This document shows, piece by piece, positions 9,484-63,700 of a DNA stretch of 64,000 nucleotides. Source of the DNA: Bilabrum cf. latius (Eukaryota). The DNA is taken from the NCBI GenBank assembly GCA_965178125.1, contig OZ237743.1, forward strand, positions 1,054,001-1,118,000, written 5' to 3'. Position numbers and translations under genes: made by a program. A model generated the notes under the pieces. The model saw nothing but the letters and a program-made list of their open reading frames with translations, did no database searches and was not told where the DNA came from. The first letter of the stretch is position 1. Each line of letters begins with the position of its first letter.

Positions 9484-9499
9484 GACTGCGAGAAATGAG
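9484..9499 (-). promoter_or_regulatory. Possible initiator/core-promoter element CTCATTTCTCGCAGTC, also at 11695-11710 and 13320-13335
   Basis: The same 16-mer lies ~45-60 nt upstream of the ATG in all three protease copies. Identity of copy C to A and B stops just upstream of it. It resembles a YCATTYY initiator but could instead be a splice acceptor. Confidence 0.3.
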
Positions 9500-10331: not shown

Positions 10332-11652
10332 TTAGTCAAGAGGCGGGGCAGGCCACACAGTCGGGAATGATGGAACCATCTGGATCCCGCACTGCCCAGC
10401 ACCCCCGTACTGAGGCCCCCGGCCCAGCAAAATGTACCCCTGTTCGCCCCACGTGGTGCCCATAGAGGTCTTAACCTTCCAGTAGTCCTCTCCGTTGAGG
10501 GTGCCGTAGCCGACCAGCAGCATGCCAGTGTCAAGCTAGGTGCCGCATGCTGTGGTCAATACGCCGCTGTGGTAGTAATGGAAGTTGTACCCTCCGGCAT
10601 CCACCGCAATCGACACAGGCTGCTGTGCCACGGCCGCCATGAGGTCTTGCTCGGAGTATGCCGCTACAGTCTGGTATTCCTTCAGATGCACAAGCTAGGG
10701 ACAAATAGGCAACTTGGCTGAGAACTGGCAAGGCCCATCCTGGGCGGTGTACGGGTAGCAGGAAGACTGCAGCATGCCATTTGCCATGACGTAGTGAAAC
10801 GCACCTAGCATTGTCCCACCCGCGCATCCGTGGGTGCCGGAGGAAGCAGAGCAGTCCACCAGCTGCTGCACGGACAGGTCGATGGGCGGGACACCATGGT
10901 AGATTGCCCGCGCGCTCTCGATGGCCCCTGCTGCCGAGAAGGCCCAGTCGGACCCGCACTGGCCCTAGTCCTTGACCGAGGTGACGGCACCTGCGAGCAC
11001 GTGTTTGCATGGATAATGGCATGGATAATGGCTTGGATAATGTCACGGTACTATGCTTTATGACGCGCAATGACTCCCAAGCAGTACGTGCATGTAATCA
11101 AGCACCGTTCTTGCAACCCGGCCACAGCAGCCAAGCATCGCGCCCACAAGCAACTGCGCGGGCTACCCGACCACCACTCGGGTGACGGGCCCGAGAACGG
11201 AGTGCTCCAGGACCAGCATTCAAACGATGGCATGCTAGCAAGCGCAAGCAATACACATGCCATAATCGTGTCTCACCTGCTGCGGTCCAATCCACCGATG
11301 GCGGCAGGCTGCCCTGCCCCTGCGTCCGACGGACACTACCGGTCTCGGTCGCAGTCGCGTTGGGAACCGTGCCTCGGAAGCCTCCGGTGTAGATGGCGGC
11401 GAACTCCTCGTTCGTCAGATCGGAGAACGCATTCAGGCCCATGGTCCACGACAGGCCCTTGGCGTTGTGCTCCTCGACGGCCTCGGCGTTGGCCGAGAAG
11501 ACCTCGAGGCGGCGTTGGGCCTCCTCGCCCTCGTAGGTCTTGCCGTGCTGGGCGGCCCATTGCGTGAACTGGGCCATGCGGTCCTTGGTGCTTGCAGCCA
11601 TGGCAGTGGAAGCTGCGATAGCCGCGATGATGGCGGTGCAGGCGGTCTTCAT
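10332..11652 (-). CDS. Papain-family pseudoprotease copy B, exons 11652-11277 and 10990-10332, ~344 aa
   Basis: Near-identical exon 1 and intron to copy A. VKD(TAG)[10 protein letters not shown]. In-frame TAG at 10965, 10695 and 10536. Stop is TAA. Confidence 0.88.
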
Positions 11653-23372: not shown

Positions 23373-26300
23373 TCACTCGTCAGTGTTGAGGCTCAGGGCC
23401 ACGCCCTGCAGCACCCAGTGGCTCGCATGCTCCTCCGTGGCGAGATCCGCTTCGAACACCAGGCCGACGCCCATCGCGTTCCTTCTCGCCTGCGTCACGT
23501 ACACCGGCGTGCGGAAGGTCCCCACGAGCTTCAGCTTGGCTGCCTCAATGGGAGTCACCTGCAGCACGGGCAGGGGCACCACGAGCACCTTGGGGTCCTG
23601 TCGCTTGAGCTGCATGGCCTTCCTGTCCCAGCCCGCACCCTCCAGGTACAGGCCCCGCACGAAGCACCCGTCCTCCGGCACCTCCACGATCTCTGACGGA
23701 TCGTCGTGCGCCGTCACCCGCGTGAACAGAGTGGATTTGTCCAGGGGCCAGCTCTTCCTCCTGCACGTGGCCTGCACCAGCGCAGTGAGATACGACTCGG
23801 GGATGTGGAGGCCACTGAGCCAGATGACCGGCGGATCGCCCTCGTCCCTCCAGGCCTCGTACTGGTTGCCCCTCTGCACGAAGTGGCTCATCCATGACCC
23901 CAGCGGTTTCTGTGTCATGGGAGCCAGCGCACGCCAGCTGTTAGGTAACAGTCCGTCGAACAGCGCATCGCCGATCTGCTCCAGGCGGTCGCTCATGCCG
24001 ATCTCGCCCTTGAGAGCGCGCTGCAAGTCCTCCAAGCTCTGCGCCATGGCACCGCATAGACCGTTCCAGCGCTCCAGCTCCTGCAGCAGCACGACCTCCG
24101 TGGGGGTGGGCAGGCCGTGGTCCGACATGATCCTGCGGCGAAGCAGCGCCACGTCTGTCAGGTCGGGCACCTTTTCCAGGATGCCCACAAGGACCCGCTC
24201 TACGTGCTCCTCCCTCGACGTGCCCTGCGCTGCCGCGGCCGTCCTCGGCTGCAGCGAGGCCAGGTTCCTCCAGAGCCCCTTGGAGGCGATCGTGAGGTAG
24301 CCGATCTCGGCGTTGGGGTGCAGCCCGAACACGGCGGGGCTGTTGGAGAGGGGCAGGCCCTCCACCTTGTCACGGAACTCCTCCAGCTCCCCCGGTGCGG
24401 GCAGATCGTAGTCGAAGCCAACTGTCGAGAAGAAGAACCTGGCGTCCTCAGAGAACAAAAAGTCCCCCATGTACTCGTCCAGGTACGTCTTGAGCACACG
24501 CCGGTCGAAGTCGTCGCTGACCCTGCCGCCGTACATGGCGTCCCCAACGAGGTACTTGAGCGAGCCCCACGGGATGATCTCGTCCCCGTTCTGGTCCGCC
24601 TTTGTGAGGTACAGCTCCAGGAGCTGGCGGGACACCTTGAAATCGGACTCGTTGAAGTCGTAGGCCACGTTCCAGCCGATCTTGCCGTACTTGCGTCTCT
24701 CCAGCACCACTGCGTGCAGGAAGCACAGCACGTACACGAGCGGCCTGAACGCCTCGTGCGGGCACACGTCGAACTCGGAAGGCTGCATCTTGTGGAGGAG
24801 TGCCCTCATGTTGAGCTTGAGGCCGTCCGGAGGCTCCGTCACCACCTTGAGCGACCGCTGGAGGATGCCCAGGGGGAACCGGTCTGTGGGCTCCGTGGTG
24901 AGCCACAGCCTAAAGTCCTCGTGCGGGTTCTTGGCCTCTTGCAAGATCTTCTCGAGGTTGCTGAGCCAGGACAGCAGCAAGTGGCAGTTCTGCAGCAGCA
25001 CCCAGTAGCCCCTCTGCATGCCCAGCTCCAGCATCTCTTCCGCCTTTTCCGCCTGTCCCTGGCCCAGGGCCAGGAACCTGAGCTTTGTGGGCGGCGTGAA
25101 GCCCTTGGCCTGTCCCAGCTGCTGGATGTCCGACTGGGGGTCGGCGCCCGGGCTGAGGATGAACACGACCGGAGACACCGGTGAGGACTGCTGGTAGATC
25201 CTCTCGTAGTCCGCCACGGGCGGCTGCACGTACCTCTCGTCCATGCGGTGGATCACGAACTGACGCACCACGTCATATACCCTGTCCACGCGGAAGCAGC
25301 GTATGATAAGGAGCCTCTGGAAGCGGGAGAGCTTGGCCTCGAATCCGCACGGGACGTCGGATGCCTCCGGGTTTGGCTTGTCGTACCACTCTTTCCACAC
25401 GGCCGCGCTCTCCGCCTTGGTGATGCTCTCGACGATCCCGTCGAACGGGTTGGGCTTGTCGCCGTCATCCTCCAGCAGCCCCTCCAGTCGGATGAGGTCC
25501 TTCCAGCCCTGGGCCGAGATCCACCCGTGGGGGCACTGCTCCTCCGGCTCGTCCAAGGAGGTGTCCCCCTTGAGGAAGAAATCGAGCTCCCTCCTGTCCA
25601 GCTCGCCCTCGCCGTCCATGATCATGGTCGTCACCTGGAAGGAGAACATGAGCTTGTGCCGCTCGAAAATACCGAGGCACGTGTAGTCGTACATCTGCTT
25701 GGTCATCTCGTCGATCATGTTCTCGAGTCGCTTAGCCAGCTCGTGGCTCGGCCTCGCGTGCTTGAGCGACCGCGTAAATACGCCGAGGAAGGACCCGAGC
25801 GAGATCTCGTACATGCGCATGATGTTGCTGAGACCTGCCATGGCAAAGAAGAGGATGGAGCCTCGCTTGGCCGCGGGTTGGTATGCCTCGCGAGCCTTGT
25901 TGATGCTGGCCCTCGTCTTGGCTGACTCGACCAGCTTGGCACCGATCAGGACCGAGCTGGACTTGGCCTCCTCGAGCGTCTCGATCAGGGCCTGGTTCTC
26001 GAGGATGTCGCCCTGCGCCGTGCTCAGCGTCTTGAGGAGCGTGTCTTCCAGCTGCTCCAGCTGCTGGGTCATGCTGCTCATCTCCGAGACGAGCTCCTTG
26101 AACTGCTTCTCCAGCTCCTCCCTCTCGTGCCCGACCACAACGTTGAGGAGCTGGTTCTCCAGCCCCTGCATGGTCACGCTGTAGTTCACGATGGAGGTCT
26201 TGCCCATGATCTCGGGCGAGTAGTGCGGGTTGCCCAGCTTGCTGGTGAGGTACATTCTGAACTCGTCCGACCACGCGATGGACTTGTCGCCCAGCTTGAT

Positions 26301-29300
26301 CATGAGCTGCGAGCCCTCGTAGTGGGTCCTCCTCTCCAGGATGGGGTCGATCCTGGGGTCCAGCTCCTCGCCCACCGACTCGAAGAGGAACGGCTGCCCG
26401 TACTGCACGGCCAGCTCCAGGTGGCGCATGAAGTCGTCGTCCAGCAGCGTGGCGCGCTTCAACCGGTTGTCGGCCTCCCTGTTCTTGATCCACTCGATGG
26501 CCTGCTGCTGCGGATCCACGCACAGTGGGAAGCGCGAGGCCTGGGTCGTGAGGATGCCGTTCATGATGGAGTGGTCGTCCGCCGGCAAGCCCTCCCCCAC
26601 CCACCTCTGCACCGTGGCCTCGCTCGCCATGAACCGGATGAGGTCGTAGGGCTGCGTGAGTGGAAGCGCCTTGTCCTTGATGTCCTCCAGCCAGTCCTCC
26701 TTGATCATCTGCTGGCGGTACTGGTACGTGAAGGGGCCGAGGTAGGAAAGAAAAGACGCAGCCACGATGCAGTCGCCCACGAGCCGCTCCTTCTGGCCGT
26801 TAATGCTCTTGACGTCCTCCCCCCAACGCTTCCTCTCCGAGCTAAGCCCGGTGATGAGCTTCGAGGCGGCGTCGAGTTTCCGGGCCATGGTGGCGGCCTC
26901 GTCCTGGAGCTGCTGCAGCTCAGTCCTGCCCTCATTCAGCTTGATGTTGAGCTCTGCAATCTCGGCCTGCAGCTTCTCCAGCCTCTTGGCGGTGTCCCGG
27001 AGCTCCCTCTCGCTCTGCTTGGACTTGCGCTGCATCTCCTGCACCCGCTGCATGAGGGGCTCTACTTTCTTTGCCACCTGGTAGTACTCGATCATGGCCT
27101 GGACCCACTTGAATAGGGCAGCTGCGGCCACCGATGCGCCGTCGAGGATCTCCTGGGTGAGGCCCTGGGAGCGGATGTAGGAGGAGGCCTTGTTGATCAT
27201 ACCTGCAGTCAGCCTCGTCTTGTCGTAGTTCTGGAGGCTCTTGAGGAAGTTGGACTGCTGCATCATGATCTTGCACGCGGACCAATCGACCGACTTGCCC
27301 TCCGTGCCGGTGGGCTTGAAGGCGTGCACGCAGTACATGCAAAATTGCACCTTTTGCGGGGGCGTCTTGAGAGCCCTCACCTCGTTCACCTTGTCGGCTG
27401 TCAGCACCTGAAGGGCCCTGTCGGCGGCGGCGAGAGCGGGCTCGGCCTCGCGCAGGCTTGCCTCCGCCTCCGCCGACTCCTTGTTGATCACGATCCTGTC
27501 CTTATCAAGCTGCTCCTTCTTCTGCTGCGCGTCTGCCTCGTCCTTGTTGGCCTCCTGCTGCCTGGCATCCACCCTCTCCAGCATCTCGCCCACCTCTTTG
27601 GCCTTGGCGTCCACGATGACCTGCCTCTCCTTGAGTACGGTGCTGAGCTGGTCCACCTTTTGCTGGGCGTCGAGCAGCTTGTCAAGGCCGCTGGTCAGTC
27701 GCTGTGCCCTCGTGTCCAGGTCTCTTCGCTTGTCGCCCAGCAGTTTGCGGTAGTTGGAGATGAAATCGAGGTAGTTCTTCGGCGTCACGTAGTTGTGCCG
27801 CCTGAGCTCGGCCTCGAACCGCCTGGACGCAGTCACGACCGATTCGTGCACGTGCACCATGTGGCCGATCACGCTGGGCCTGTGCTCCTCCGGGAGCGTC
27901 TCGTCCTTCAGGAAATGGCTGGCCACCTTCTCTAGGGCATCCGCAGGCCACGGGAAGAACCAGTCGATCACGCACGACGACACGAGCCCGGGGAAGTTCC
28001 TGCAGCGCCGGCGGAGCGTGTCGCCCGAAGGCGACATGGCCAGCACGATGTGCAGGTTGTTGCGGCACTTGGACACGAAGTACGCCCAGCAGTTGTCTGC
28101 CGTGTCCTCGATCCCCGCGGCCTTCACCTCCGACCGCACCTGGTTGATCATCACGTCCTTCTCGTCCTTGTCGTAGAGGGCAGGGACCATGCCCGTCGAC
28201 AGCATGTTGTTGATCAGCTCGAGGAAGCCCTCCTCGGCCACGTCAGCGTCCGTGAAGAGGAACACGACGGGTTTGACCACCAGCATCTTGTACAGCTCCT
28301 TCAGATCCTCCCTGAAGTCCTTCTCCGTGTAGTTCCTGGACATGGTGATGGTGAACAGGTCGTAGCCGGCCGTGTACGTGGCCAGTCGGGTGAGGGACTG
28401 CTTGCCGCTGCCACCGACACCCACCAGCAGCGCGTTGCCGCGACGCATCCGCAGCACCCGCAGGATCCTCGTGAGGTGCTCCAGCGCCTGCTAAAAGAGA
28501 ACGAGGGACATCTCCTTGACCTCCTCGTTGTACAGCTGCAGCACCTGATCCAGGATGCCACGCACGCTGTCGAAGGAACCCAGGTCGCGGTAGAGCCTCA
28601 GGTCCTCCTTCTCCTCGGACAAGCGACCGAAGGCCTGGCCAAAGTCGCCGTACAGCATGGGCATCCTCAGGGCGTGATCCGAGGCCTCTCCGAAGCCCCT
28701 GCGGATGAGTGCCTCAAGCTCCTTGGCAACGATGGCGTGATCCTCGTCGCTTACCAGACGGTCCGCGAAGATCCTGCAGCACTCGTTTCTCCACAGTCGC
28801 GCCACGTCTGCCTCTGTCTGGACCGTGTCGGGGGTGATGGTGGTCAGCCCCTCGTAGATGCGGCCCAGGTCCCGCAGGTTGAAGATGTAGTGGAACTTGG
28901 CGGGGGTGGGCGGGAGCTTCTCCACCAGCGTGTTGTACAGCGACAGGGTAAGCCCCGTGACCTTGCCTGCAGCGGCCCTGGCCGGGTCGGTGTACCCTCC
29001 GTCCTCGTAGAACCTCTCGATGATGGACCCGTAGATCTTCCTGAGCACGTCCTCGGTGGGAGGCGTCAGGTTGAACACGGAGAACATGCTCATGAAGCGA
29101 GGATCCACGCTGTTGCGGCCTCCCCCAGGAGGACCCATGGCCCCGACGTACCTCATGTCCTTGAAGGTCTTGAGCTCCAGGTCCTTCTGCCTGTCGTACA
29201 TCTGGCCGCGACCCACCAGGAAGTGCAGGAGGGCGATGGGCTGCTGCGTGCCGTACGTGTCTACCCTGGGCATGTTGAGGTCGTCCACGAAGACCAGAAG

Positions 29301-32300
29301 CTTCTGCCCGATCTTGGGGCCGTAGGTCTTGCCTGAGCGCCGGTCCACCACGCTCTCGATGTTCTGCTGGACATCCCATGACGTCGTCCTGCTGCTAAAG
29401 TTGATCACGAGCGGCTTGAACTTCTCGGGGTCCAGCGACTGCATGTAGTTCTGAATCGTGACCGTCTTGGCGGTGCCCGACTCGCCCACGAACAGGGTGG
29501 GCTTGCTCACCCTCTGCATCTGAGTCAGGATCCACGTGTACAGAACCGAGTCGGTGGTGGGCACCAGCACCCGATGGATGTCGAAGGGCTGCGGGGGCAC
29601 GTAATCGGGCACCTTGGATTTCCACGCCACCCACTTCTGGTCCTCGGGCGAGTACAGGTGCACGTAGGGGTCCTCCGGGATGCCCAGCTCAACCATCTTG
29701 CCGAGGAACTCGGCGAACCGAGCTCGCTGGGGACCGGTCGCGGCCGCGCCGCAGGACCACACGAGCGCGTTCACAAAGAGGCCCTCCAGCGTGTCGAACT
29801 CGGTCACCTCCTCCTCGTACGGAATGAGCGCGTCCAGCATCGAGCACAGCTGCTTGACCATGGACAGGTCGGTCATGGGCACGACCAGCTCCACCGGCTC
29901 CTCCATGTCGCCCGTGCCGTCGCCCAGATCGCCCTCCAGCACGTACGCCACCAGCTTGTCAACGTACTTGTCGAACAGCTGCATCAGGTTCTCGGCCTCT
30001 GTGGGTCTCGGTCCCGCGCCCGCCGCCTTCTTCTTGCCCCCCTCGGCCCCTCCGGCGACGCCACCCTCCGGCTTGGGATGGAGGCCCCGGCGCCTGAGCT
30101 CGGCCCACCGCCAGAAGTAGGGCCGGTACCTCAGGTTCTTGGGATCAACGTACGTCATGCCGCAGCGACTGATGGTGGCGGGACTGGCGTACTGCAGGTC
30201 GAACACCTCCACGAGGATCTTGCAGTGGTCCTCCAGTCGAGTTCTCGTGCCGTTGGGCAGCGTGAGCAGCTTGTTGTCGTCCATCACAGAGTTCATGTCT
30301 TCCACCCACACTGCGTCGACGTCGCCGTCGAAAACGATCCAGCGCATCTCGTTCTCCTTGCCCGGGGGCAGGGGCTGGTTGCACTCCCGGAACAGCTTGG
30401 AGAGAATGCCGTTCTGCCACTCTCGGGTGGCCGGGTCCATCACGCCGTAGAGCTCCTTGACCGTCTGCGCCTTGGGGTTGAGCGTGAAAACCTTCACGTT
30501 TCGGTTGAAGGCGGGCTTGCTGGCCCTGGCCAGGGCGTTGATGACGACCGTCTTGCCGCCTCCCGTGGGACCGACCACCATGGTGGTGTGCCTGACCAGC
30601 ATGACTTCGTACAGCTGGATGACCTTGTCGACCTGAAGCTGAAAGACGTCCTCGAGGTCATGGTGCATGACGTCCTCCTCGAGCACGGCCTCTGTCGCGT
30701 TCTTGAGCTCTGGATATGCCACGCGGGGGCAGTCCAGCCCGGGGAACAAGTCGTCGATGAGGCCCTTGAAGAGAGGCACGTCCTCGTACACGAACTTGGG
30801 GAGGTTGGAGTCCCGCAGCGAGCGCATGAGCACCAGTTCCTCCGTCATGTCTGCGTACTCCCTCTTGAGTCCTCCCGCCATCACCAGCACCGACTTGAGC
30901 GCCCTGAGCCCGAAATCGTAGTGGTACTGCTTGGACAGCTGCTCCCTAGCCAGCGAGTACAGAGTGGTCATCTTCTTGGCCAGCACCCTCGCCTCCTCGA
31001 AGCCCTCGGAGAACAGCATGATCTCGCAGATCTGCAGCAGGTCGGGCACGATCATGGTCACGGGACGGAACAGGGCCTTGAGGTTGTCGGGCAGCTCCGT
31101 GCGGCCGGCGTACCCGGGGTTCATGGTGATGAACACGCCCACGCTGGGGTTGATCTTGATCTCGACACCGAGGCCGATGTCGGCGGTCGGTCTGCCGTAC
31201 AGGAGCGCGTTCTGGATGGATTTGAGCTGCGCAGAGACCACCGACAGCACCTCCACGTTGATCCGGTTGAACTCGTCGAAGCAGCCCCAGGCCCCCACCT
31301 GCGCCAGACCCGAGAAGGTGGCGCCCAGTGCCTTGTAATCGAGACCCTCGCCGCAATTCTGCACGTAGCAGGGCAGGGCGAGGTTCTTGGCCAGATCCTT
31401 CACCGTCTCCGTCTTGCCGGTCCCCGCAGGACCCGCAGGGGAACCACCGAGCTTGAATGTGAGCGCCTGGGTCAGCGTCATGTAGCACCGGTCCGTGAGT
31501 GGCGTGATCACCAGCCTGCCGGACAGGCCCATGTAGTCGTACCCGTAGCCGAACTCGCCAGTGCACTGCCGGATGAGGATGTCGTCGACGTCCTTGTCCC
31601 AGTAGAACCTCAGCTGCGACTCCCAGGCGAACTCTCTGGCGTCTAGGATGGAGTCGCGGACGAACGAGTCCACGATGTCGCGCGCGTGGACGTCGACGAT
31701 GAGCAGCGTGTTGCACTTCTTGCGTATCATCTTGGGGATGTCCCCTCTCACCAGGCCCACGAGGTCGATGAGCTGCTGCGTGAGCTTCGAGGCGAAGCGC
31801 TTCATGGCGTACTTGTCGCCTTGCGCCACCCGCCTGAACGTGTCTTCCGTCTCCCACGTCCACCAGATCTGGGACCCGACCATGCACACCATGCCTATCT
31901 GTTCCTTGACCCACTCGATCCGCTCCCTCCTGGCGTAGTAGAACACGCCCTCCTTGGCGATCTTGTGGAGCGAGTACTTCATGTCCTGGTCAGTCTGGGT
32001 CATCCACTGCTCCACGGGGCCCTCCACGGAGGTGTTCCTCCTGAAATCGAAGGACTCGCCCTCGCTGGAGGACATGCCCTGCACCAGCTTCGCGTCGGAG
32101 GAAAACGCGAGCTTCTTGACGTTGTTGTAGAGCTGCATCAGGTACTGCTCGATCCCGCGGGGATCTGAGGAGCCCAGCACCGCCAGCAGCTCGTCGTCCG
32201 AGATGAAGAAGAACCGAGGGAAGGCGTTCCTCTTCGAGTCCAGGTACTCGCTGAGGCTCTTCTGGCATGCGTCCAACATCTCGCCCATGTCGACAAGCTC

Positions 32301-35300
32301 GTCCCTGCGGTCCGCCGTGCCGGCGCACTCGAGGATAGCGGGGGTCTTGACGACCTGCTGCATGATGCTCTTGAACTGCTTATCGATGCCGGCGAATCGC
32401 TTGGCCTCCTGCGGCAGCTGCATCTTGATGTCCTCGTTCCCGATGAAGATGCCCTCCAGGTACCTCCACTTCTCCTGCACGTTGTACCACACGTCGAGGG
32501 TCTCGCCCACGATGCTGAGGGAGTCACTCCACTGCTTCACCTGGCCCGCGAACGTGGTGACAAAGCGAGAGCCTTGGATGGTCTGCAGCTGCAACGTGTG
32601 GTCCTCGAGCTCGACCTTGATGTCGTCCGCCGGCAGCAGAAGGTGCGCCCTAAACACCCCGTTCTTGGAGTACTCACCCACGGCCAGCTGGGTGGACCTC
32701 CACTTCCTAGAGATCGCGTCGATGTCCTTCTCGATCTTGAGCTCGTTCATGGCCTCCGTGACGATGTCGTCGATCGTGTCCTCGAAGCGGCTCAGGTTCA
32801 TCTCGAAGATGCCTTGCAGGGTGAACGTCTTGGGGTTCATGCTGAACTCTACGCCAGTGAGCTCCATGAGCTTCTTCCAGTGCCTCTCTTTCATGGCTTC
32901 GTTCTTGAGCTTGCTGATGAGCGGCAGCGAAGCACCGAAGCCCTCGATCTCCCCGCGCACGCGAGCGTACAGCGGCATCTCCTTGAGCTCGGCGGGCTGC
33001 TTCCTCGCCCTAGACTGCAGCTGCTGGGAGCCCTGCTCGAGCGCGTTGGTGTCCAGGGCAGACCACAGCATGTTGCTGTTCGTCTCCGCGAACGTCTTCT
33101 GGTCCTAGTATAGCCCGTACAGCTTCTCCACTTTGCCCAGGTCCTCTTTGACCAGTCCCAGCTCGGGGTATCGGGTCACGTCCATCCCAAAGAGCCTCTA
33201 CGCGTCGCTGATCTCCGCCTCTCGCGCGTTCATTGCGGCCAGCTCCTCCCTGGCCTTGGGGAGCATCTCCAGGCCCTCGTCCAGGGTGACCCCCTCCTCG
33301 GCGGCGGGGCCCGTGGCCTGGTATCGCTCGAGATACGCGGCGGCCTCCTTCTGAAACTCCTCCGCCTCTGCCTGCGTGGTGCTCGCAAACCTTTGCTTGA
33401 GCGCGTTCAGCCTCGCGTCCTTGGTCAGCGCCCAGTTGACCACGTCCTTCCACTCCTTCAGCAGTTCAGAGGCGACCTCTGCCTCTTCCGCGTCCACATG
33501 GATCATCTTCTCGTACTTGCTGAGCGTGCGGAACCGCTCCACCACGTCGGCGATGGCGAGCTCGGTGTCCATCCGCATGAGCTTCACCTCGCGCACCGTG
33601 GTGAGGACCGTCTTGAGCTCCGCCAGGTTCTGCGGCGAGCTGTCGAGGATGGCCATGAGCTGGTCCCAGTGCTCCCGCATGCCGTGCATGCGAGTGGTCG
33701 CGGTGTCGGTGAGCACCCTCCCGTACTCCTTGACGAGCCAGCGAGCCTGCCTTTCGTTCTCCTTGGCGACAGGGGTGCAGTCCACGCGGATGAATCCGAC
33801 GTCCTTGACAGCGGGATGCTTGCGGGCCTGCTCGGCAAGGGCCGTGAAGGACGCCATCTTGGCGTCAAAGTAGGACACGGGCAGCTGCCTCTCCGCCAAA
33901 GAGTTCATCTGCGACGGCTTGCGCTCCTTCCACAGGCCCCTCTCCTCGCCGAACGACTCCCAGTCCGCCACGAACCGCTTCACGTCCTGGATCATGCCAA
34001 CCACCGCCGGATCCATGGCCACCATTGCGCCCACCACCTCCTGGTTGCTGACCATGTCCTGGTAGTACGAAAAGTCGGGCGCGTCGCTGCCTTCCATCAC
34101 GTCGGGGAGGGCAGGGATGCAGGTGCCGTCCGTCCACCGGATAAAGTTGCTCGCCGCGCGGCACAGGAACTCCACCGTCCTGGACAGGTATCTCGCGATG
34201 TAACCCGGCTCAGGGGACATGACGAGGTGGGGCAGGTTGTGGGTCACGTTGACGAGGACAAGGGGGCGGCGCCGCTCCAGCCTCGTGCCGTCGGCCCCGG
34301 CCACCTTGTCCAGCACGTCGATGTTGAGGAGTCCCTGGAATGTCACGATGGAAGCCACGGTCATGCGCACGATTGCGTTGTAGATGCGCCGCTCCCAGTA
34401 CCTGTAGTACTCCTGCAGCAGGGGGGCTGCCCTCGTCTTCCTGCGGTCGCACAGCGCGGCCTCGATCTGCTCCAGGCTCGCGGGAATGCTGCGGAAGCGC
34501 TCCTGCAGGTCCTCCAGCCTAACTCTGCCCTTCTTCTCCAGGAGTTCGTAGAGCTCGGACACCTCCATGGGGTGCAGTTCCGCCGTGTCTTCCTCGCGGA
34601 AGAGCAGCGTGGTGGCGATTGCCTGCACGTGCTGCTCCACCTGATCGTGGGACTTGCGCACCGCCCCCAGCTGGTTGTGGAAGGCCCGGATGGAGGTGGT
34701 GACCTGCTCGATGAATGCGCTGATGTGGAGCGAGTTCCAGTTGAGGGGAGAGAACCCCGGTCGAACCTTCGCTCGGAGCTTGGCCAGGTCATTCTGCATC
34801 AGCGTGGCCTCGACCGGCTTGAGCTGCCTCAGGATGCCGTGGTACTCTGCGAGCATTCGCTGCAGGCGAGACACCTTGCCGAGGAACTCGTGCTCCTGCA
34901 GCGTCACGTTGAGCGCCGCTTCCGGCACCTCGAAGCCGAGCCGGTCAAGGAGCTTCGTCTCGCGGATGAGGGCGTAGAGCGCCGGGCTGAAGTTGACGTG
35001 GTAGGGCGGGATGGCCATCCGCGTGGCGGGTTCGTCCACCGCGCCGTCAATGACCTTGCCGCCGAAGGTGGCGGCAGCAGCCGCGGCCGCAGCCACGTAC
35101 AAAGGCTGGTCCTGCCCATGCAGGCCCTCCTGCCCACTGCCCGGCTTCAGGATGTCCTTGGGCGCGAGGGGCTTGTCGTGCAGGCTGGGGCCCAGCACGT
35201 GCTGCGTGAGGAAGTCGCTGGCAAGCTGCTCCACCCTCTCGGACCAGCCTGAATAGAGGTCACGGATGTACGTGTCGATGGACCTGGCGTAGTTCAGGTA

Positions 35301-37844
35301 CGCTCGTTTGTAGGACTGCCCGTCGGGAGTGGTCAGCAGGCCTGGCATTTCCTTGCGGAAGCGCAGGATCAGCCGCTTCTGCCGGATGTACAGCGAGTGG
35401 GCCCAAGAGATGGCACCTGCCACGGGCGGGTAGTCCTTGAACACGGGAGGGCTGTCCCTTTGCGTCTCGAAGAGGTCCTCCGCCTCGGACAGCTCCTCCC
35501 TGGCCTTGGACACCACGCGGTCTTGCTTGGCCTCCAGCTGCCGCCTGATGGCCTCCCGCATCTCCACTCCGCTGAGCTTGCCCAGGAGGTCAAAGGCGCC
35601 CTCTGCCGACCTGAGCTTCTCGAAGGCGACGTCGATGAAAGAGGCCGTCTGGTCCTCGATCGCTTGCGCCTCGCGGCGGAAGCGCTCCATGCGACTGTTC
35701 CACTGGTCCTCGTTGCTCTTCTCGTAGGGGCTCTGGCGCAGCTTCTGCAGGGGCAGCGGGAGGTCCTCGACCATGCGGTTCACCTTGTCCACGGCAGTCT
35801 GGTCGCTCGTGATGCTCCGGAGCTCGGGTCCGCTGAAGAAGCGCCTGAACTGGTCTATTGTGGACACCACCTCAATCACGTCGCCGATCACCGCGGCCAT
35901 GTGGTCCGTCCTTGCAAAGAGTTCTCTCCGGTCGAACTCCCACCTCGAGTCGCTCTCGTGCTCGATCTGCTCCCGCACCTGCTTGTAGCTCTCCCTCCAC
36001 TGCACCAGCACGTCCCGCGCCAGCTCGAGCGTCGGCATGGACTTCTTGGCTGGCTGTCTCAGGATGCCCCGCAGGTGCACCTCAGCGGCCACCTGAGCCC
36101 GGATCTCCCTCGCGATCCGCTGCAGCAGCCCGCTCATCTGCTGGTCCCTGAAGTGCCGGCTGATGATCCACACTCGGCGCAGGCCGGTCAGCATCGGGTG
36201 GATCGTGTCGAGCATCAGCTGCAGGGAGCCGGAACCTAGGGCCTTGAAATGCCTCTCCACAGTGGACAAATACTTGACGTTGTCTGCCGCCTCGGCGTGC
36301 GCCTTGGCCAGCTCAGCGTGTGCCCCCGAAAACTTGCCCAGCTGCGGCTCACGCGCCACTTCGAGCACCTGCAGCATCTTACGGACGCGAGGGGCCTGCA
36401 GCTGCTCGAACAGGGCGGAGAGGGTTGCGTTGCACCTCCTCCAGTATTCGATCTCCCCTGAGGGTCCCTTGCCGCGCGCCATGCCCTTGACAGTGGCCAG
36501 CACGTGGGTGACCGTCTCCTGCCAGTCAAGCACCGCGTCCAGCACGATGGCGCGCACCTCGTCGTTCTCCGCCGCGGCGGCCGGGTTCTCGATGGCCAGG
36601 TCGGGCACATCCAGCTGCACCTCGCCCGTGAGTGACTGTGACGTGTGCTCCATCTGAGTGGCGAAGCGCTGCAGGCTCGCCCTGAAGTCACCCTTGATGC
36701 CCTCGGGAACAGTCTTGGCCCCCGTGTCGACCTCCTGGGGCTTGGGCAGGGCGGCAACGGAGCCTCGAGCAATGCCACCCGCTCCACCGAGCATGGACCC
36801 GCCGCCAGAGCCGCCGCCGAGCTGGGACCCCGCCCCTCCAAAGGCGCTCCGGCCCCCGAATACCGACGCGGAACCGGCGGCGCCGCCGCCAAAGGCGCTC
36901 TTTCCCCCCCCAAACACCGACCCAGACATACCCCCGCCACGCCCACCGAATACCGACGCGCCGGACGCCCCCCGTCCGTGGCCGCCCCCGCCCCCGCCAA
37001 ACACGGAGCCGGCGCCACCACCCGGAGTGCCCGACCCGCCGATCATGGTCCCCGCACCTCCCGCGCTCGTCATGCCAGCCGTGTTGGCCCCATGGATGAA
37101 CACCGACCTGGCGTAGTCCTCGGAATGTGCGTCTGACCCGTCATGCCTCGCCCCCCTGCGGCCCCCCAGCTGCGCCTCGAGCATCGGTATGAAGGCCCCC
37201 TTGAGGGCCAGCCCCATGCTGCCGATTCCGTCCTCGCTCATCTGGCCGTACTCTACCCAGGAGGCCATCTCGTCCTGCACAGTGTCCTCGTCGTCCGCGC
37301 TGGGCTCCAGGGGACCATCCTTGGAGCGGATAAAGTAGACGGCGGGTGCGAGCACATCAGCGGGCATTGTTCCGATCGAGGCGCCCACAACAAACTCGGT
37401 TCGCTCTTCCATTTCAGTGACCGTGTGGGGCACCATGCGGCTGACGAGCTCTGTTTTGGGGGACTTGGGGGCGGCTTCCTCCACTCCATCCTCTCCCTGG
37501 CTCTTGCCATCCTCGTCCTGGTCTTTCTTCTCCTCTGTGCCGTTGCCTGCCCCTCCCTGGGCAGCGCCGTCCGCTGCCTCTTCCTCTTCTTCCACGACCA
37601 TCTCGAAAATCTCCCGCTTCATGACTGTTCGTTCCACTGGGACTTCCGTTGTGGTTTCGCTGGCATGAATCAAGAGGGTTGTCCCGGCCGGCGTGTCGGC
37701 AGCCAGGAAGGCGTCGATCGCAGCGCCGTCCAGACCTGGCTTGCCCTTGCTGGAATAAACAACTTCGAAAGCCTCCTCGTCAAAATCAAAATACATTTGA
37801 GATATTTCCCTTATCCATCGGACCGCCGGTGGTAGTGCCACCAT
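23373..37844 (-). CDS. DNAH10: Axonemal inner-arm dynein heavy chain (I1/f alpha, DNAH10-type), intronless, 4823 aa
   Basis: P-loops GPAGTGKT, GPTGGGKT, GESGTAKT and GVGGSGKQ. C-terminus HWVLQGVALSLNTDE is typical of DNAH10. The three long ORFs are in one frame, separated only by TAG at 33198, 33105 and 28491. Stop is TGA. Confidence 0.92.
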
Positions 37845-38159: not shown

Positions 38160-41065
38160 ATGGATTCTGCAGTAGTGAGATTGCTACGCGACTCGTTCCA
38201 CATGGTGATGCTCTGGGGGCACTCATCTCCCAACGCCATTAACTGCAACTGTAGCAGCCTATTCCATGGATTCAAAGCAACACGCGGAAACCAGCACTCA
38301 TTAAGATGCCGTACATTGTGCTGTAATTTTATTTATACTGTGCGCAGCCAAGGCATCTTCGGCCAGACGATATCGAGGATGTGCAAGATGACGACCTCAT
38401 GGACTTCGATGAGCAGGCCAAGCGCGAAGAAGAAGAGGACGATGAAGATGAAACGTCCGAGGAGGAAGTGGAAACAGGGTTGACAGAAAACTAGGGGCGA
38501 ATGCTATATCTCATAGGCCTCTACGCCAGACCGGCACGGACGGGAGCAGACAAGGAGGAATGGATGAGGCGACAGGCTCTGCTGGTGATGCTCTACGAAG
38601 GGATTGTTGCGGAGCTGTTCGACTACGATTACGCCCCTGCATCCATGTTTCTAGAAGACAAGCGAAGGTACTTTAACAAGTCGCAGGAGGGCGCGAGCGA
38701 CATTGATTACCTCAGGGAGGAAGAGCTCGTCAACGGCCTCAAGCTCTCCTCCAAATCGTACGTGCCCGTGACCTGCTACCAGATTTCGAAGAAAGGAATG
38801 GACCTCATCCGACGGATGCCAAAGGCAGACAAGGACGCCGTGCACGAGCTAGTGTTCTCCCCCGGCACCAGAGAGCTGCTTAGGATCGAGTGGAGGGGCG
38901 AGCAGTACGCTCTCATCGGTGCCGGGGGGTACGAGAGAATCTCTACCGTCACGGAGGTAGAGGACGTGTCATACGTCTCATCTGCGTACGTGCCACAGTG
39001 CCTGCGATTCGGGGGCCGCCCGACCCTATCCAATGCGCACAGAGCCGGAGAGTGCGCGGTCAGCGTCAGCAACATCAGGGACGAGCTGGACGAGGTGATC
39101 ACCCTGAATAGCGTGTCCATCATCGTGGCGGAGTTCATCCCGTTCGGTGCCAACCAAATCGTCACGATGAACAATAACTTGGGATCCACGGAGCGCGTGC
39201 AAGGCGGTTTCTTCACGGCTCTGATCGACGAGGACTCAGCGGGCACAAAGTTCGAGGTGGAGCCGGGGCTTACTTCCGTGAACATCCTCGACTACACGCT
39301 GACCAAGCACGTCAACTTTGAGGCGGACATCCACCTGCCGGAGGACGAGGGCATCGTGTAGGTGGAGACGTTCGGGGTGTCTCTGAACGCCGACGGAACG
39401 TGCTTTTACGGCATGCAGGTGGAGGCCGTCATGGATCGAATCAAGGACAACGTCTCGCTCGACCACCTGTCCCGGCTCCTCGTTGACGTGGCCACGGACT
39501 CTTCCACCATCGTGGACTCTGTCATCAGCGCGTACCAGCGAAAGCTCATGAACCTCGTGTTCAACGGGGACGCCGAGCAGCGAGACAAAGTGAACCTCAT
39601 CATCGCGAACGAGATCACGCCGCACCTCACCGCAGAGGAATACATGGACAAGGGCGAGTACGAGAACGAGCTCAAGCAGGTCATTGGTGACACGCGGGCG
39701 GCCTTTGACATATCCGAGCACGACACGCTCATCTTCGGGGAGAACGGGCTGCTGCTCGCGGGCCCCAACTCGAGGCAGCACGAGCCTCTCCTCTGCGCCT
39801 TCTTGCAGTTCACGGCCATGGATCTCTTCTGCAGGAACTACTGGAACAGGCTGTTCCTCCTAAACGATGAGATGCGCGAGCTCAAGCGCCTCCTCAACAC
39901 GCATCACGAGGACCCGACCAGTCTGGAGAAGATCCGCGCCAAGATCCAGGTCTCTGCCGACAGGACCAGGCTGCTGGGCGAGACGCTGGGCTACCTGGTG
40001 GAGGCGCTTGAGGCCTCTGAAATCCCCCCAGAGCCGGCTGACGGCGCAGGCCGGGCATTGTATGACCGACTCCAGATCGCGGACCTGGCTGGGCAGCTCT
40101 CGATGCGCGTGCTGGACCTCAAGAAGAACATGAGGGGGACGGAGCAGGAGCTTGAGTTCCTGAAAGGGCTGGCGGACGTGATCACGCAGGGGAGGCAGAT
40201 GAGGACCCAGGAACTGATCGAGTACAACTCGAGGCAGATGATGCTGCTGCACAGCACCGAGGAGCGCTCCGCCAACACGCTCGAGGTGCTGCAGTTCATC
40301 TTGTCGGCCATGCTGGCATTCGCGGTGATGGACAGGCTCACGGGGGAGTGGAGCATCAACGACCTGGCTTGGATGCAGGACTTCAAGGCGGCCATGCTGA
40401 CCGACAGCCCCGTGATTTGGTTCTTCTTCAACTTGATTTTCTGGGCTACGACGGCCTACGGGCTCTACAAGCTGGGCCAGTACCTCGTGTTCCTCTCCAT
40501 GGGACGGATCACGCTGCGGATCCGGGTCATGCAGCGGCTCAGCCCGACCAATTTCAACGCGCTGCTGCAGAGCAAGGAGACGTCTCTGGAGGACAAGGAC
40601 GTCGACGACTACAATACGATTGTTAGGATCATGTGGACCGAGAAGGACAGGGCGGCCTTCGGAGGCACCGTGCCAACCGTGCAGGTCGAGTACGACACGG
40701 ACACGGCGTTCCTGCACTACATCTACGTCTCCTACAACCGCCACTTAGCGAAGGCAGACGAGGCGCTCACGGCAGCGCAGGTTCGAAACCGGGTGGCGCA
40801 GGACTTTGTCTCTGCGGAGGTGTTCGAGGACAACCAGTACACGTTCGAGGAGGAGATTCTCGACGAGACGGGCGAGGTGGTGGACGGGCCCAGCGTGATG
40901 CCGATGGATGCGACGTCTGCTGCAGGGGCCACCCAGGCCGGCCAGCAAGAGTACGGCCCTGCCAGTGGCAAGAGCGCGGAGGGGCGGGCGGCCGACGGGG
41001 CCAGCTTCGGCAAGGGCGGCGGGGTGGGGAGCGAGAGCTTGGCGGGGTCTAGCGTGGTCGCATGA
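38160..41065 (+). CDS. Conserved-looking hypothetical protein, ~910 aa, with a coiled coil and two C-terminal TM helices (probable exons 38160-38174 and 38348-41065)
   Basis: Strongly biased codon usage. ORFs 38501-39361 and 39362-41065 are contiguous across TAG 39359, with another TAG at 38492 (LTEN*GRMLYLIGLY). The first micro-exon is tentative. Stop is TGA. Confidence 0.75.
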
Positions 41066-42150: not shown

Positions 42151-43248
42151 TTAAAACCGGTCTTTTCTCTTCCGACCCGAGTACTTGGAGTCCCTCTTGA
42201 CCTTCTTTCCCTTACCCTTGGCCTTGTCCTTTAGGTGCATGATCACATCCCTCCTCGTCACTGGTAGCTCCTTGCGCTGCCACTTGGTGCCCTTCTTCTT
42301 CCGGTACACTGGTTTGCTGCCCCCGCTGGGACGGTGGATCACCCTGACGCCAGCACCCACGGCGGGGCCGGTCGAGGAGGAGGAGGAGGCGTCCGCCCAT
42401 GCCGCCGCAGACGAGCTGCTGCCCCCACCCGCACCGCCCTTGGCAGCCCGCCCCAGCTCGCCCGCACCCTCCCCGATCCCCACCCCCATGGCCTCGTCAT
42501 CATCTTCATCTTCATCTTCATCCTCTCCATCCTCCATGCCTGCCACACCCGCGCCACCACCCGCGCCGGCACCCCTTTTCTGCTTGCCCTTCCTCCTCGT
42601 GATCCGCGCCGCTGTCCCCGGTGTGCCCGCGGAAATCACGAGGTAGTACTTCTTCGCCTTCGTGGAGTTGGGGTAGTCCACCACAAGACCCCCGCTGAAA
42701 CCGCATCGCATCGCGGTGGTGGTCAGCATCTCGAGCTGCTCCTCGTCCTTCGGGTAGAGCTGGAGGGCGGCCCGCCCGCCGCGGCGGAGGGCACCGTAGA
42801 GCGAATGAAAGAAGCGAGTAATTCGCTTCATCGGAGTGTGTCGCTTTTGCGTTGCAAAACACAACCACTGCACGGCGGACACGCTGATCACGCCGTCGAA
42901 CGTGCCAGGCCGGAAGCCGAAACCCTGCCCCATGTCGCAGAGGATCAGGTCGCCGGATGCCCCTCTCGCCTTCGCGATGCCAAGCATGTCCTTTGCGATA
43001 TCAAAACCAACCCATGCATGACCAGCTGCCGTAAGTGCGGCCCCACTGAGGCCCGAACCAACGCCAATGTCAAGAATAAACGCTTTCTTGCTCGGTGGCA
43101 TAGCGAGGAGCTCGATGCATCGTTCTGCCATCTGTGTCTAGACGGTAACCATTCGGCTGCTGCTCGTGTACTTCTCTGCCTCTGTTGAGGAATAAAAAAC
43201 ATCGGCCGGTGCAACCAGCTCCGGCCTCTGGCTGACATGAGTTGCCAT
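42151..43248 (-). CDS. BUD23: 18S rRNA guanine-N7 methyltransferase BUD23/WBSCR22, ~365 aa
   Basis: RPELVAPADVFYSSTEAEKYTSSSRMVTV(TAG)TQMAERCIELL, ILDIGVGSGLSG, GGLVVDYPNSTKAKKYYL, and C-terminal DSKYSGRKRKDRF followed by TAA. TAG at 43138. Confidence 0.95.
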
Positions 43249-48446: not shown

Positions 48447-50220
48447 ATGGTTAGTGCAGCAAAAATTCAGAATATTCAGCTAGCATGCTCAGTTGCCCGT
48501 AAGTGTCATGCACAAAAAACATAAAAATGACGGACAGGCTACCACATACAGTTTTCCCGGTCCAACTAATCGCCGTTTTTCTATCCCAGGAGTGGACACG
48601 AACGTGTTTGTAGGAGTTCATCTATGGACGCCGTTTGGTGCTCGTGGTGTGTACGGCGGGCAGGTCGCTGCGCAAGCACTGTGCTCCGCGTGCTTCACGG
48701 TTCCGCACGGGTTCGCCCCTAACTCCCAGCACTGCATGTTTCTACGTTCAGCGGATGGCGATAGGCCGATCGTGTATACCGTGCATAGGATTCGAACGGG
48801 ACGCTCCTTTGCAACCCGATGGTGCGTTGCAACGCAGGCAGCAAAGCCGGTGTTCGCGTGCTCTGTGTCATTTCATACGGAGGACAAAGAGACGAGCCCA
48901 TTGGAGCACCAAGTAGACCCACCAATTATTGTCCAATCAACGGAAGCGCCTGATCCATCCACTAGGTCCCATCATGCGCGAAGCACCCCCAGATTGGATA
49001 GCAGAGCGACTGCCTTCTCCAGCCGAGCCACTCCCAGCCGCGTGGAGCCGCCAGAGGAGCTGCCGGGGCGGCGTGCCCGCTTCGAGCAGATGCTCCGCGA
49101 CCCTCGACTTCCAGAGGGCTATAAATACACCATTGAGGCGCGTAGAGACGCCGTGGATGACGTGATCGACATGCGGCCGTGCGGCCGAGAGGACCCACTA
49201 TACCAGGGGGCCAGACCCCCCGAGTACTGCGTCTGGATGCGCGCGGCGCCAACGATTACGGAACCTGACGGTGGCAACACACGCGGTGGCGAGAGGCAAG
49301 AAGTGGTGCAAGGCCAGCACACTCGTCACACCGCGGCACCGGAGCTGTCCGAAGCGGGTGCAGCAGGGGACCAGGGCAAGGCCACCCAACCGTCGAAGGC
49401 TGCGGCCCCTGGGAGCCGCCTGCAGCACGGGGGTGACGTTGATGATAATTGTGCCGAAGCTACTGCTGCCGGTGCCGCCGGTGCCGGTGCCTCGCTGGCC
49501 GGTAGTACTGCCCCGCTGGAGCCTTTGCTGGATTCTGGCTCCGGGTTGCTGGACAGGGTTCGCATGCCGGCGGAGGTGCGGTGCAGGCTCGCTTGTGTGG
49601 TCTCGTTCCTCAGCGATTTCAACCTCCTGGCGGCCGCCATGCGGCTGCACGGGTGGCCAAACCCGGAGCTCGGCATGATGGTGAGCCTCGACCACACTGT
49701 GTGGTTTCATCGCACTGCAGCGCTGGGATCGGAGCACGACTGGCTGCTGCTTCGGATGCGGTCGCCGAGCCTGAGCAGCGCGCGGGGCTTCGCGCTGGGC
49801 GAGATTTTCTCGAGGGACGGTAAGATGATTGCAAGCTGTGCCTAGGAGGGTCTCATCCGCATGCGGAAGGGATACAGGATGCCAAGTGGGGGATCGGATG
49901 GACATGGGGACGGTGATGCAGGAGGAGCCTCGTCCTCGACACACGGGCTGCCTCCTTCGTCACTGCGGGCCGCGGCTGCTGCTGCAGAGTTAAGCGATTC
50001 GGGTGCCAGCCAGAAGGATGGTAGTTCCAGTGGGATTGCTGCCTGCAGTGCATCCACTGCCTAGCAGCAGCCTGACGATCTCGTGAGAGTCGCGGTCTAT
50101 GGGAATCGCACGATGCCTGAGCGCGGAGGAGACATTGAGGCTGCTGCCTCTCTGAGCAGGGGATGCCGCGCAAACCTGATGTCTGCGTCAGCTTTGCAGG
50201 GATGGAGCAGCAAATTTTGA
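48447..50220 (+). CDS. ACOT8: Acyl-CoA thioesterase II (TesB/ACOT8-like), probably peroxisomal, exons 48447-48498 and 48590-50220, ~560 aa
   Basis: VYGGQVAAQAL, RIRTGRSFATR, SLDHTVWFH and ASCA(TAG)EGLIR. TAG at 49843 and 50062. Ends SKF-TGA, a PTS1-like tripeptide. Confidence 0.87.
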
Positions 50221-50401: not shown

Positions 50402-53400
50402 ATGGAATCAAGTACTTCCCATGTTTTGACTGCCGTTGACGAAAAACTCCGGGGCAGTGTTGAGTGGGTGGCTGCCCTGCTCGACAAGGTCCGACCTGAG
50501 CTACTAGACGAGCTCTGCCTCATTTTTACTACCTCTGATGGATCAGGCAGGGCTTGCATGCAGAATGCAAAAACAGTGATACTTAAAGCTGCCACTGAAT
50601 AGAACGGTAGAACGCGATCCGAAAACTCATAGCTTTTGTGTGCGGCGGCACGTGCTGCATTCGCTGGAGCTTGGATCCACTCAAGCGAGTTCAGCTTTCA
50701 ACGCATCTATTCCCAGTTACGGGCGGCAAGCAAGCTGTATCAAGCTTGTGGTGCTATTCTGTTCTTCGCTGGTCCGCTTATCAGCCCTGCAAATGCTTCC
50801 TACACGGTGCCGAGAACGCCTCACGCCACAATGGGACACATGCGATTTCGCATGCAGCGTCGAGGGAATGCAGACAATGATGCAGCGACATTCTTGCATC
50901 TGTGTGCATGCAATGGCCTTGACGATGTTTGCGCTGAATTGTTGGATTCTGGACTCTACCCGGACCCAGACGTTACGTCAATGAACCCCGACAAATCAGT
51001 CGAAACACCCCTGTAGCTGGCTGCCTTTAACAGGCACGTCGATGCAGTGCGAGCGCTCGTGTCTCGAGGCGCCAGCATATTTCTGCCAGAGCCCTCGACA
51101 TCCCAGCCGATGGACAGAGTGCAAGTGGACCAGCCTCGCGTGGACAGCAGGTTCCTGGGTCCTGGCAGGTACGCTGCAGGGGGCCCGTGCCCGACTAAGG
51201 AGCTGATCGATGCTCTGCAGGGCCCTCACAAAGACGCAGCTAGAGCGCATGCAGTACGGTTTTTTGCCTTTGCGGCAGCGGCAGCTCGCGAGCTGGGAGC
51301 TCTTGCCGTCCAATCCGACGTGCTGCCGGGCGGGGCACTGCAGCCCCTTGGAGTAGCTGACGCGCTGGCTCTGCGAGATATCATGCCTGGTTCAGAAATG
51401 AACCCACAAGGCCGGCGAGGTGACACCAGGGCCACGGGAATTTCCCCCGTCAGCACCGCAACGGCAGCTGACATGGCAGGGATCTAGGACCCGGAGCAGT
51501 ACGTCCCGCCCACAGGCGCGGCTTGTCCTACACTGCCGCTTTTGGAGTCGTCATCTTACACGTGTACAAAGAAGCAGGCCGCAAAGAGGATGTTTACAGC
51601 GATGCGGGCGAGACAAAGACGGCTGCTGGGCATGATCGAATAGCTAGATGCGCATGCGGGCCCAAAGCATGCCGTTTCAAGGCCCCGCCGCAGCACTAGG
51701 GTGCATGCTGATGCGTACAAGATCACCGTGATGGAGGACAGGTTCGGTAAGGCACTGGCGCACCTCAGGCCGGGCTCCGAAGGGGCCCTCGTGGCCCGCA
51801 ACTCGAGGGGCGCGACACCCCTGCACTACCCCGCCAGCGCTGTGAACGATGGGGGCAGCGATGCACGGCTGTGGGTGTCACTGGCTCTGTTTGCGCTGGC
51901 AGAGCGCGAGGAGCAAGACCTGCAGGAGTGGGTGCGAGAGCAGAAGAAGATGCTCGGTGGTCGATCAATCAGCGTGTCAGAGCGAGACCTGATGATTGAA
52001 GCGAGAGAGCGAGGGAGCGAGGAGGAATCGAGGTACCAGCGATGGCAGCCCGGCGGTCTGTCGGTGGACGAGGTGCGCGAGGCAAGCAGGGGCATGCAGG
52101 AACTGGCAAGGCATGCAGAGGACTTGCTGTTGGAAGCCACCGGGGCAGTGCTTGCAGAGGCAGCCGATCCCGCAGAGCTATCGGCCGCTGGCGCTGCTCG
52201 AAGTCTCGATACCATGTTGCGGTTTAAGGCGCCGTCTGGCGCCGCAATTACAGGTTGTGAGTATCGAGTCAGCGCGACTGTCGAGCGCAAGGCAGACCAC
52301 AGAGGTATGGGGGCCCGCATGTCGACCGCAATGTCGGGCTGCGCAGTAGCTTTGCTGAAGGGGGAGCTGACGAGCATCCGGGCAGCCGCTATCCACCAAG
52401 GCAGTGCTTCGGCAGGCAAGTTGGCCCAGGGCCAATACAGTCTGCCTGGCATGACAATGAGCGTGAGCTTCAATGAATCGAGTGAGGTCGGCAGGCAACA
52501 GGCTCAGGCCGGGCCACCCGTGATGCGGCTATCGGCGGGGCATATCATTGCATCCGTCCGACTGGTTGCAGGACGGGTGGAGAAGCTCATCTGTCCTGAT
52601 GGTGGCGAGCCTGACGATGCCCTTAGAGCGGGATCCTCCTCGGGGGCAAGGGCAGGAGCGCATCCGCCGGCATCTAGCGCTAGCGAAGTGCTTCGAAGCG
52701 CCGTGCGTGGGACGCTGACGGCCATCGAGGAACTGGCGGCCGTCACTTCCTGTACCCGAGAGAGCTGGGAGGCCGAAGAGATAGGGGCACTGGATGCCCG
52801 ACTACAAAGCTCCAGACAAGCATTGTTGGAGGTGGTGCGTAGCAAGACAGGGGCCGCGCCTGGCTGGGTGCGTGGGTGCGCTGCACTGGCCCTGTCGGGG
52901 GTGAAGCAAGGCGCCGGCATGGCCGTGGCTCATTGTTCCCTGGGGATTCTAGCAGAGAACAGCAGAGGACCCACCGTGGATGCATAGCTGGACGCAATGG
53001 AGGGTAAAGGAAGCGCTGCCGAGACCGTCGCCGCCACGCCTGGCAAAACACGAGTGGCTTCGGGCACGAGCGGATCGGTGCGGCCGGCTGCCGTTCTCAG
53101 TTGCTGCTGGATTAGAGGTCACACGCACCGCACTGGTTTGAATCTAGCTGGATATCCTTACCACGTCACCGAAGATGGACCCCTCCTTGAGATGTGTGCC
53201 GCTCTGGCTCCTCAGCAGATGGACGTGATTCCGTCTCGAGCTGTGGCCACGACCCGAGGGCCTCGCGGTTTCGGCGACTCGCTGGTGGTGAGCGAGGCCG
53301 CGGCACGATAGCCCACGGATGATCCATTGACCGAAGGCTTTGAGCTAGACGCGGCTGTCAAGCGGTTGGTGCGGGCCCACCCTCAGTACGAACCACATAT

Positions 53401-62775: not shown

Positions 62776-63700
<925 letters not shown>

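Follow-up and report, generated by a model that had tools for sequence, protein, structure and literature searches.

To our knowledge, UAA and UAG almost always change their meaning together, and each independent exception tests how eRF1 distinguishes between the two codons. The best match to the code described here is found in Iotanema spirale (Fornicata), whose codon table is identical, with UAG read as glutamine (Gln) and UAA and UGA kept as stops (PMC5304391, PMC9161772). In Iotanema a tRNA with a CUA anticodon was predicted and a T32G change was found in the GTS motif of eRF1 (Panek et al. 2017, PMC5304391), a motif that is intact in standard-code relatives (Vargova et al. 2022, PMC9161772). 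The same table is given for the ciliates Hartmannula sinica, Trochilia petrani and Protocruzia tuzeti (McGowan et al. 2024, PMC11687900), and there, as here, the code was inferred from conserved Gln columns. The same source describes codes that reassign UAG alone to another amino acid, namely leucine in the rhizarian exLh and in three ciliate metagenome-assembled genomes from TARA, and serine in Scotinosphaera, as well as the ciliate PL0344, in which UAA means lysine and UAG glutamate (PMC11687900). In all of these the nuclear UAA and UAG are decoupled as in the DNA analysed here, though in other lineages (PMC11687900).

The stretch of DNA that we analysed (64,000 nucleotides, hereafter the window) is gene-dense, has a GC content of about 60%, and contains long genes that stay in one frame if TAG is read through. 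The original prediction was drawn from one of them, the gene for the 18S rRNA methyltransferase BUD23 (Table 1), whose frame (43248..42151, reverse strand) contains a single internal stop, the TAG at 43140..43138. The identity of the gene as BUD23/WBSCR22 follows from Pfam matches to Methyltransf_11 and WBS_methylT, with a SAM-methyltransferase domain and a WBS_methylT tail that has the G-R-K-R..F end, and its alignment with PDB entry 6g4w_q (E=7e-77) is gapless over the TAG. It had been claimed that this TAG falls on the conserved Gln of the family, and the family alignment bears this out, since the column is invariably Gln in the best 120 of 437 homologs and also in 46 of 46 named ones. The placing of the TAA at 42151 directly after the conserved C-terminus GRKRKDRF was equally correct: among the best 120 of 437 homologs, 107 have their final residue in the column of this Phe and 13 are longer by one to five residues. 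The further claim, that this one gene by itself displays UAG as sense and UAA as stop, stood for UAG but not for UAA, because the frame continues with C-V-L-T and reaches a TGA five codons past the TAA, so that BUD23 alone cannot prove that UAA terminates. That UAG means Gln and UAA means stop was borne out mainly outside BUD23, by the exchange of TAG and CAG and the swap of TGA and TAA stops in a dynein gene, and by TAG at Gln sites of other genes.

The TAG in BUD23 is not an assembly slip. It is covered without a differing letter by contigs X1 (42601-43596) and X6 (42535-43380), and none of the four sequencing runs compared (ten were listed) shows an alternative letter or a skip at this place. 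Contig X1 is DNA-like and X6 comes from a run with splicing elsewhere, where the RNA status of X5-X7 is a guess, contigs omit rare variants, and the runs that match the window include none recorded as RNA, a result without bearing on expression. The codon stands in genomic and apparently spliced contigs alike. As a separate observation, BUD23 carries a long low-complexity linker of glycine, alanine and acidic residues (42600-42300, reverse strand). Through this linker it exceeds the typical family length of 275-285 aa by about 85 aa, and several relatives of 330-400 aa share this greater length.

Table 1. Genes and in-frame codons of the window, with positions counted from its first letter
Feature	Position	Strand	Observation
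BUD23 (18S rRNA m7G methyltransferase)	42151..43248	-	single open frame, 365 aa with TAG read as Gln
BUD23 in-frame TAG, codon 37	43138..43140	-	column Gln in 120/120 homologs (best 120 of 437)
BUD23 TAA stop	42151..42153	-	right after conserved C-terminal Phe (GRKRKDRF-TAA); in-frame TGA five codons later
Axonemal dynein heavy chain (DNAH10 / inner-arm I1 alpha type)	23373..37844	-	4823 aa in one frame; TAG at 33200, 33107 and 28493
orf38399, conserved protein of 888 aa without Pfam hit	38399-41065	+	two TAG
orf38399 TAG, aa 321	39359..39361	+	column Gln in 136/136 aligned relatives (150 relatives examined)
TesB-type acyl-CoA thioesterase II TAG, Q-E-G motif	49843..49845	+	Gln in 4/4 PDB alignments shown
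Papain-like paralog 2 TAG, K-D-Q-G motif	10965..10967	-	CAG in paralogs 1 and 3
ANK2 (50402-55129) ankyrin-repeat TAG	51014..51016	+	opposite CAG in paralog ANK1
Dolichol-phosphate mannosyltransferase-like (DPM1-like) exon TAG	62929..62931	-	Leu in the sole, distant PDB match

The strongest evidence for the code comes from the axonemal dynein gene. A metagenome scan with the window dynein returned 12 loci, two of which (L001 and L002) belong to a sister lineage, with about 80% identity in DNA and 92% in protein over 3241 aligned codons. The sister dynein has 25 in-frame TAG, of which 19 stand opposite a CAG of the window and the other six each opposite a different residue (G, D, E, S, K and L); conversely, both window TAG covered by the sister (aa 1580 and aa 3118) face a CAG, the third (aa 1549) lying outside sister coverage. 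Five of the sister TAG fall on columns where 119-120 of 120 or 110 of 110 homologs have Gln. Counted over the window codons that differ from TAG by a single base, TAG stands in the sister at 19 of 149 CAG, as opposed to 1 of 238 GAG, 1 of 180 AAG and none of 216 other codons (TGG 0/53, TAY 0/102, TCG 0/49, TTG 0/12), while 20 of the 149 window CAG are CAA in the sister. Sister TAG codons match a window Gln in 76% of cases and sister CAA and CAG codons in 88% (Fisher p=0.12), and TAG is used about as often as CAA in the sister gene (25 and 23 codons). The two dyneins differ by 1432 synonymous and 235 non-synonymous changes.

The other two stop codons behave differently in these genes. No in-frame TAA occurs in the 3247 sister and 4823 window dynein codons, and no in-frame TGA in the 3247 sister codons; by a hand estimate, about five TAA would be expected in the sister if its TAA:CAA ratio equalled that of TAG:CAG. 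Tryptophan is encoded by TGG at 53 of 53 positions in both lineages, and after identical last residues the dynein ends with TGA in the window and with TAA in the sister. Five AT-rich control loci of the same scan (L005-L009) have both TAA and TAG in frame, as in a ciliate-type code, which means that the dynein test is able to detect a coupled code; locus L003 has none. A ciliate-type code for the window itself (table 6, with UAA and UAG both read as Gln) was rejected on the zero count of in-frame TAA in both dyneins. As seen by comparison of the two genes, purifying selection treats TAG as a third synonym for Gln in two related lineages, and TAA and TGA behave as interchangeable stops.

The sister contig also allowed two side observations. 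A database protein of 361 aa (P0241) represents a fragment of the sister dynein (L001 2-8056) that ends at a TAG, and in a search for shorter dynein pieces this sister fragment was the closest match at 96%, the next one reaching 71%. Standard gene calling cuts such genes, as P0241 exemplifies, and the lineage is hence under-seen in protein sets. On the same contig, a frame of 686 aa (L001 9029-11089, reverse strand), which we take to be glycoside hydrolase-like, holds a single in-frame TAG and is closed by TGA. It has no counterpart next to the window dynein, and the order of genes is therefore different in the two lineages.

Beyond BUD23 and the sister dynein, in-frame UAG was found at conserved Gln sites in orf38399, the TesB-type thioesterase and a papain-like gene (Table 1). 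The second TAG of orf38399 (38492) falls on a column with His in 36 and Gln in 21 of 63 relatives, and all seven relatives with at least 55% identity have Gln there. At the papain-like TAG, Gln stands in two of the three PDB alignments shown and Glu in the third, and the residue at the DPM1-like TAG is presumably Gln in eukaryotic DPM1. In the more distant pairs of paralogs, TAG is mostly opposite residues other than Gln, as in the divergent pair ANK1 and ANK2 (35% identity), where only 1 of 16 TAG is opposite a Gln. Taken over 19 genes or last exons of the window, which were chosen by Pfam hit or by length, the Gln-type codons comprise 70 TAG, 122 CAA and 528 CAG, such that TAG accounts for 70 of 720 (10%). 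With ends defined by construction as the first TAA or TGA, 16 of these 19 end at TGA and 3 at TAA, which indicates that UGA is kept as a stop. The TAG share of 12 genes was not significantly related to their CAA share (rho 0.46, p=0.13) or to GC3 (rho -0.25, p=0.44).

Several of these genes have features of their own. Three tandem papain-like paralogs (8158-13472, reverse strand), each with an I29 propeptide exon, have the catalytic Cys replaced by Asp and the catalytic His by Thr, which makes them probable pseudo-proteases as judged from their residues; relatives of theirs found on viral contigs retain Cys and His at the positions that are readable. The protein of orf38399 has 1637 relatives at E<=0.001 and hydrophobic stretches near its C-terminus; a divergent second copy is visible in all four runs (39628-39742), and upstream of the gene a GT..AG skip (38175-38347) occurs in contigs X5 and X7. 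ANK1 and ANK2 are divergently oriented ankyrin-repeat paralogs of about 1580 aa on either side of the thioesterase gene (43533-48272, reverse strand, and 50402-55129, forward strand), which despite their low overall identity have near-identical blocks and C-termini in common, possibly as a result of gene conversion. The DPM1-like gene ends with a tandem stop, TGA-TAA (62776-62778, reverse strand), and a frame of 1532 aa at 311-4909 on the forward strand with 11 TAG and without a Pfam hit contains a long Gly-Ala repeat, with a hydrophobic segment at the C-terminus.

We consider it very probable from these comparisons that the lineage of the window has fully reassigned UAG to Gln, with UAA and UGA as its stops (a code of the table 15 type). 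For half of the sister dynein chains to be whole, each of 25 TAG in the gene must be read through with an efficiency of at least 97%, and this favours full reassignment over leaky read-through. The change may have begun with the duplication of a tRNA-Gln(CUG) gene and a single base change in one copy, which would yield a tRNA-Gln(CUA) that reads UAG but not UAA. In parallel, eRF1 would have become largely unable to recognise a G at the third codon position but would have continued to read UAA and UGA, by analogy with the change proposed for the GTS motif of Iotanema. Such a tRNA and a release factor that tells UAA from UAG had also been predicted from BUD23, and Panek et al. (2017) drew the same conclusions for Iotanema. 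The reassignment would date to a long stem, between the separation from Cafeteria and that of the window and sister lineages from each other, and later C-to-T changes may have turned CAG into TAG at roughly the rate at which CAG became CAA.

An alternative that concerns this mechanism, not the code, is that UAG means Gln without a dedicated tRNA, with tRNA-Gln(CUG) reading UAG as a near-cognate codon after its release by eRF1. Natural read-through of stops by near-cognate tRNAs is known (PMC4150775 and PMC13192750, the latter including tRNA-Gln), TAG is scarce in the window dynein (3 of 231 Gln codons), and a tRNA scan and an Rfam scan of the window returned neither a tRNA gene nor any Rfam match, rRNA included. 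The sister dynein speaks against it, where TAG is as frequent as CAA, stands at invariant sites too, and calls for the decoding efficiency given above, as do the CUA suppressor tRNAs described in two ciliate genomes with UAG read as leucine (PMC11687900). On balance we regard decoding without a dedicated tRNA as unlikely.

Full reassignment also has to be weighed against a context-dependent dual meaning, in which UAG is Gln inside genes and nevertheless ends some of them, as UAR does in Blastocrithidia or Condylostoma. Only 19 ends were sampled, each being read to the first TAA or TGA by construction, and a TAG end could lie within unconserved tails, given that the last TAG precedes the stop by 15 codons in orf311, 52 in TesB, 57 in CaMKK, 75 in FkbM and 104 in orf19452. 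Where homology fixes the end of the protein, though (BUD23, the dynein of both lineages, and papain-like paralogs 1 and 3), the stop codon is TAA or TGA in five of five cases and TAG in none, and since UAA and UGA are both still used there is no pressure for a dual role. We hold a dual meaning to be very improbable.

Even less credit is due to a reading of UAG as Glu, or as a mixture of Gln and Glu. It was suggested by two window dynein TAG on Glu-leaning columns (79 Glu and 35 Gln of 119; 81 Glu and 10 Gln of 120), the third lying on a variable column, but the sister has CAG at the covered Glu-leaning site (aa 3118) and likewise at aa 1580, and the assignment of Glu from the window columns alone was dropped after this comparison. 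Glu stands opposite only 1 of the 25 sister TAG, as compared with 223 of 239 GAA or GAG codons (p=2e-22), and the TAG of BUD23 and orf38399 lie on columns with Gln throughout (120 of 120 and 136 of 136). Finally, the chance that the TAG are artefacts or are removed (by sequencing error, in pseudogenes, as ends of tiny introns or through U-to-C editing of mRNA) is close to nil: although GT occurs in frame at distances of 6, 12, 63, 78 and 99 bases ahead of the last base of the BUD23 TAG, and the guessed status of X5-X7 and the loss of rare variants from contigs leave this some room, such an intron would delete an invariant Gln and in its longer versions also Arg32 (118/120), X6 has a GT..AG skip in TesB that is absent from X1 and yet an intact BUD23 TAG, purifying selection is strong, and the in-frame stops of two lineages are TAG only, with neither TAA nor TGA.

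As to the organism, the closest named match among the matches listed is Cafeteria roenbergensis, a bicosoecid stramenopile (PMC6972860), at 65% for BUD23 and 64% for dynein, and its protein set contains full-length BUD23 and dynein. We built three trees, all of them single-gene, computed in quick mode without bootstrap and with one named bicosoecid. The tree of the dynein middle part (44 rows, with 42 of 120 dynein hits picked by hand) unites window and sister at the tip of a long stem, and places this clade next to Cafeteria and one other protein as its sister group (SH-aLRT 96). The BUD23 tree (34 rows, with 33 of 120 hits picked by hand) also groups the window with Cafeteria (SH-aLRT 95), and the tree of the dynein tail (33 rows, with 31 hits picked by hand) has window and sister in an unresolved group of nine rows together with Cafeteria (SH-aLRT 97). 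The stem of the window and sister lineage measures 0.41-0.6. The window is thus likely to be nuclear DNA of a heterotrophic stramenopile related to Cafeteria, a bicosoecid or close kin. A standard nuclear code in Cafeteria and the other organisms of the trees is deduced from the full length of their proteins in the database rather than from DNA sequences.

In the open-access literature we found, among the matches listed, no nuclear code change in a bicosoecid or any other stramenopile. The list of UAG reassignments in PMC11687900, in the part of that text available, holds no stramenopile; code changes in stramenopiles are linked to mitochondria only in the available portions of PMC6723347, PMC11412368, PMC6972860 and PMC12152300, and those of PMC10120064 and PMC12153298 name none. 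For Cafeteria roenbergensis, which is GC-rich and has few introns, the accessible text mentions a non-standard code for the mitochondrion only (PMC6972860). The decoupling of UAG and UAA is already known; what looks new is the lineage, which appears to add a major group of eukaryotes for which the literature search found no nuclear variant. We consider it rather probable that the window lineage represents the first change of the nuclear genetic code in Stramenopiles, an earlier report outside the open-access literature being possible.

In this context, a link to viruses comes to mind. Cafeteria is the host of the giant virus CroV, and all confirmed isolates of giant viruses have standard-code hosts according to the part of PMC13524828 available. 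As a guess, the window lineage may be a candidate host for giant viruses in which TAG means Gln. Four scans of viral contigs gave no such link. Those with orf38399, FkbM and BUD23 returned no relative; the one with the papain-like protein gave 20 loci at 35-59% identity, none of them with an in-frame stop within the match, and in an all-against-all read-through test of these 20 loci, shadow frames masked any signal for TAA, TAG and TGA alike. It would be tempting to join all of this into a single account, with the first nuclear code change of Stramenopiles, a GC-rich genome with UAA as a minor and unlocked stop, a code half-way to reading both UAA and UAG as Gln, a host of aquatic giant viruses with TAG as Gln, and a code that acts as a barrier to standard-code viruses, but that all these parts hold jointly seems improbable to us.

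How, then, does the window compare with the known cases? The resemblance to Iotanema spirale goes beyond the codon table: TAG is a minority Gln codon in both (about 8% in Iotanema, 10% in the window), and close relatives lack the code in Iotanema and apparently also in the window lineage. They nonetheless belong to unrelated supergroups, Iotanema being an anaerobic metamonad and the window lineage a likely stramenopile, and they differ in the main stop, which is UAA in Iotanema (104 UAA and 15 UGA; PMC5304391) and UGA in the window. The eRF1 and tRNA-Gln of the lineage would directly test whether the GTS change of Iotanema has recurred. The ciliates are similarly set apart. Phyllopharyngea have a GC content of 27-54%, below that of the window, and in the reassigned ones UAA ends 87-98% of genes (PMC11687900), as compared with 3 of 19 in the window. 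McGowan et al. took the dominant UAA to lock this codon as a stop (PMC11687900). Next to a well-sequenced neighbour, Cafeteria, the window lineage does not fit the two usual companions of the code, low GC and a dominant UAA stop, and set against the published cases with stop counts it stands out, on a small sample of 19 ends, by combining a high GC content with UGA as the main stop.
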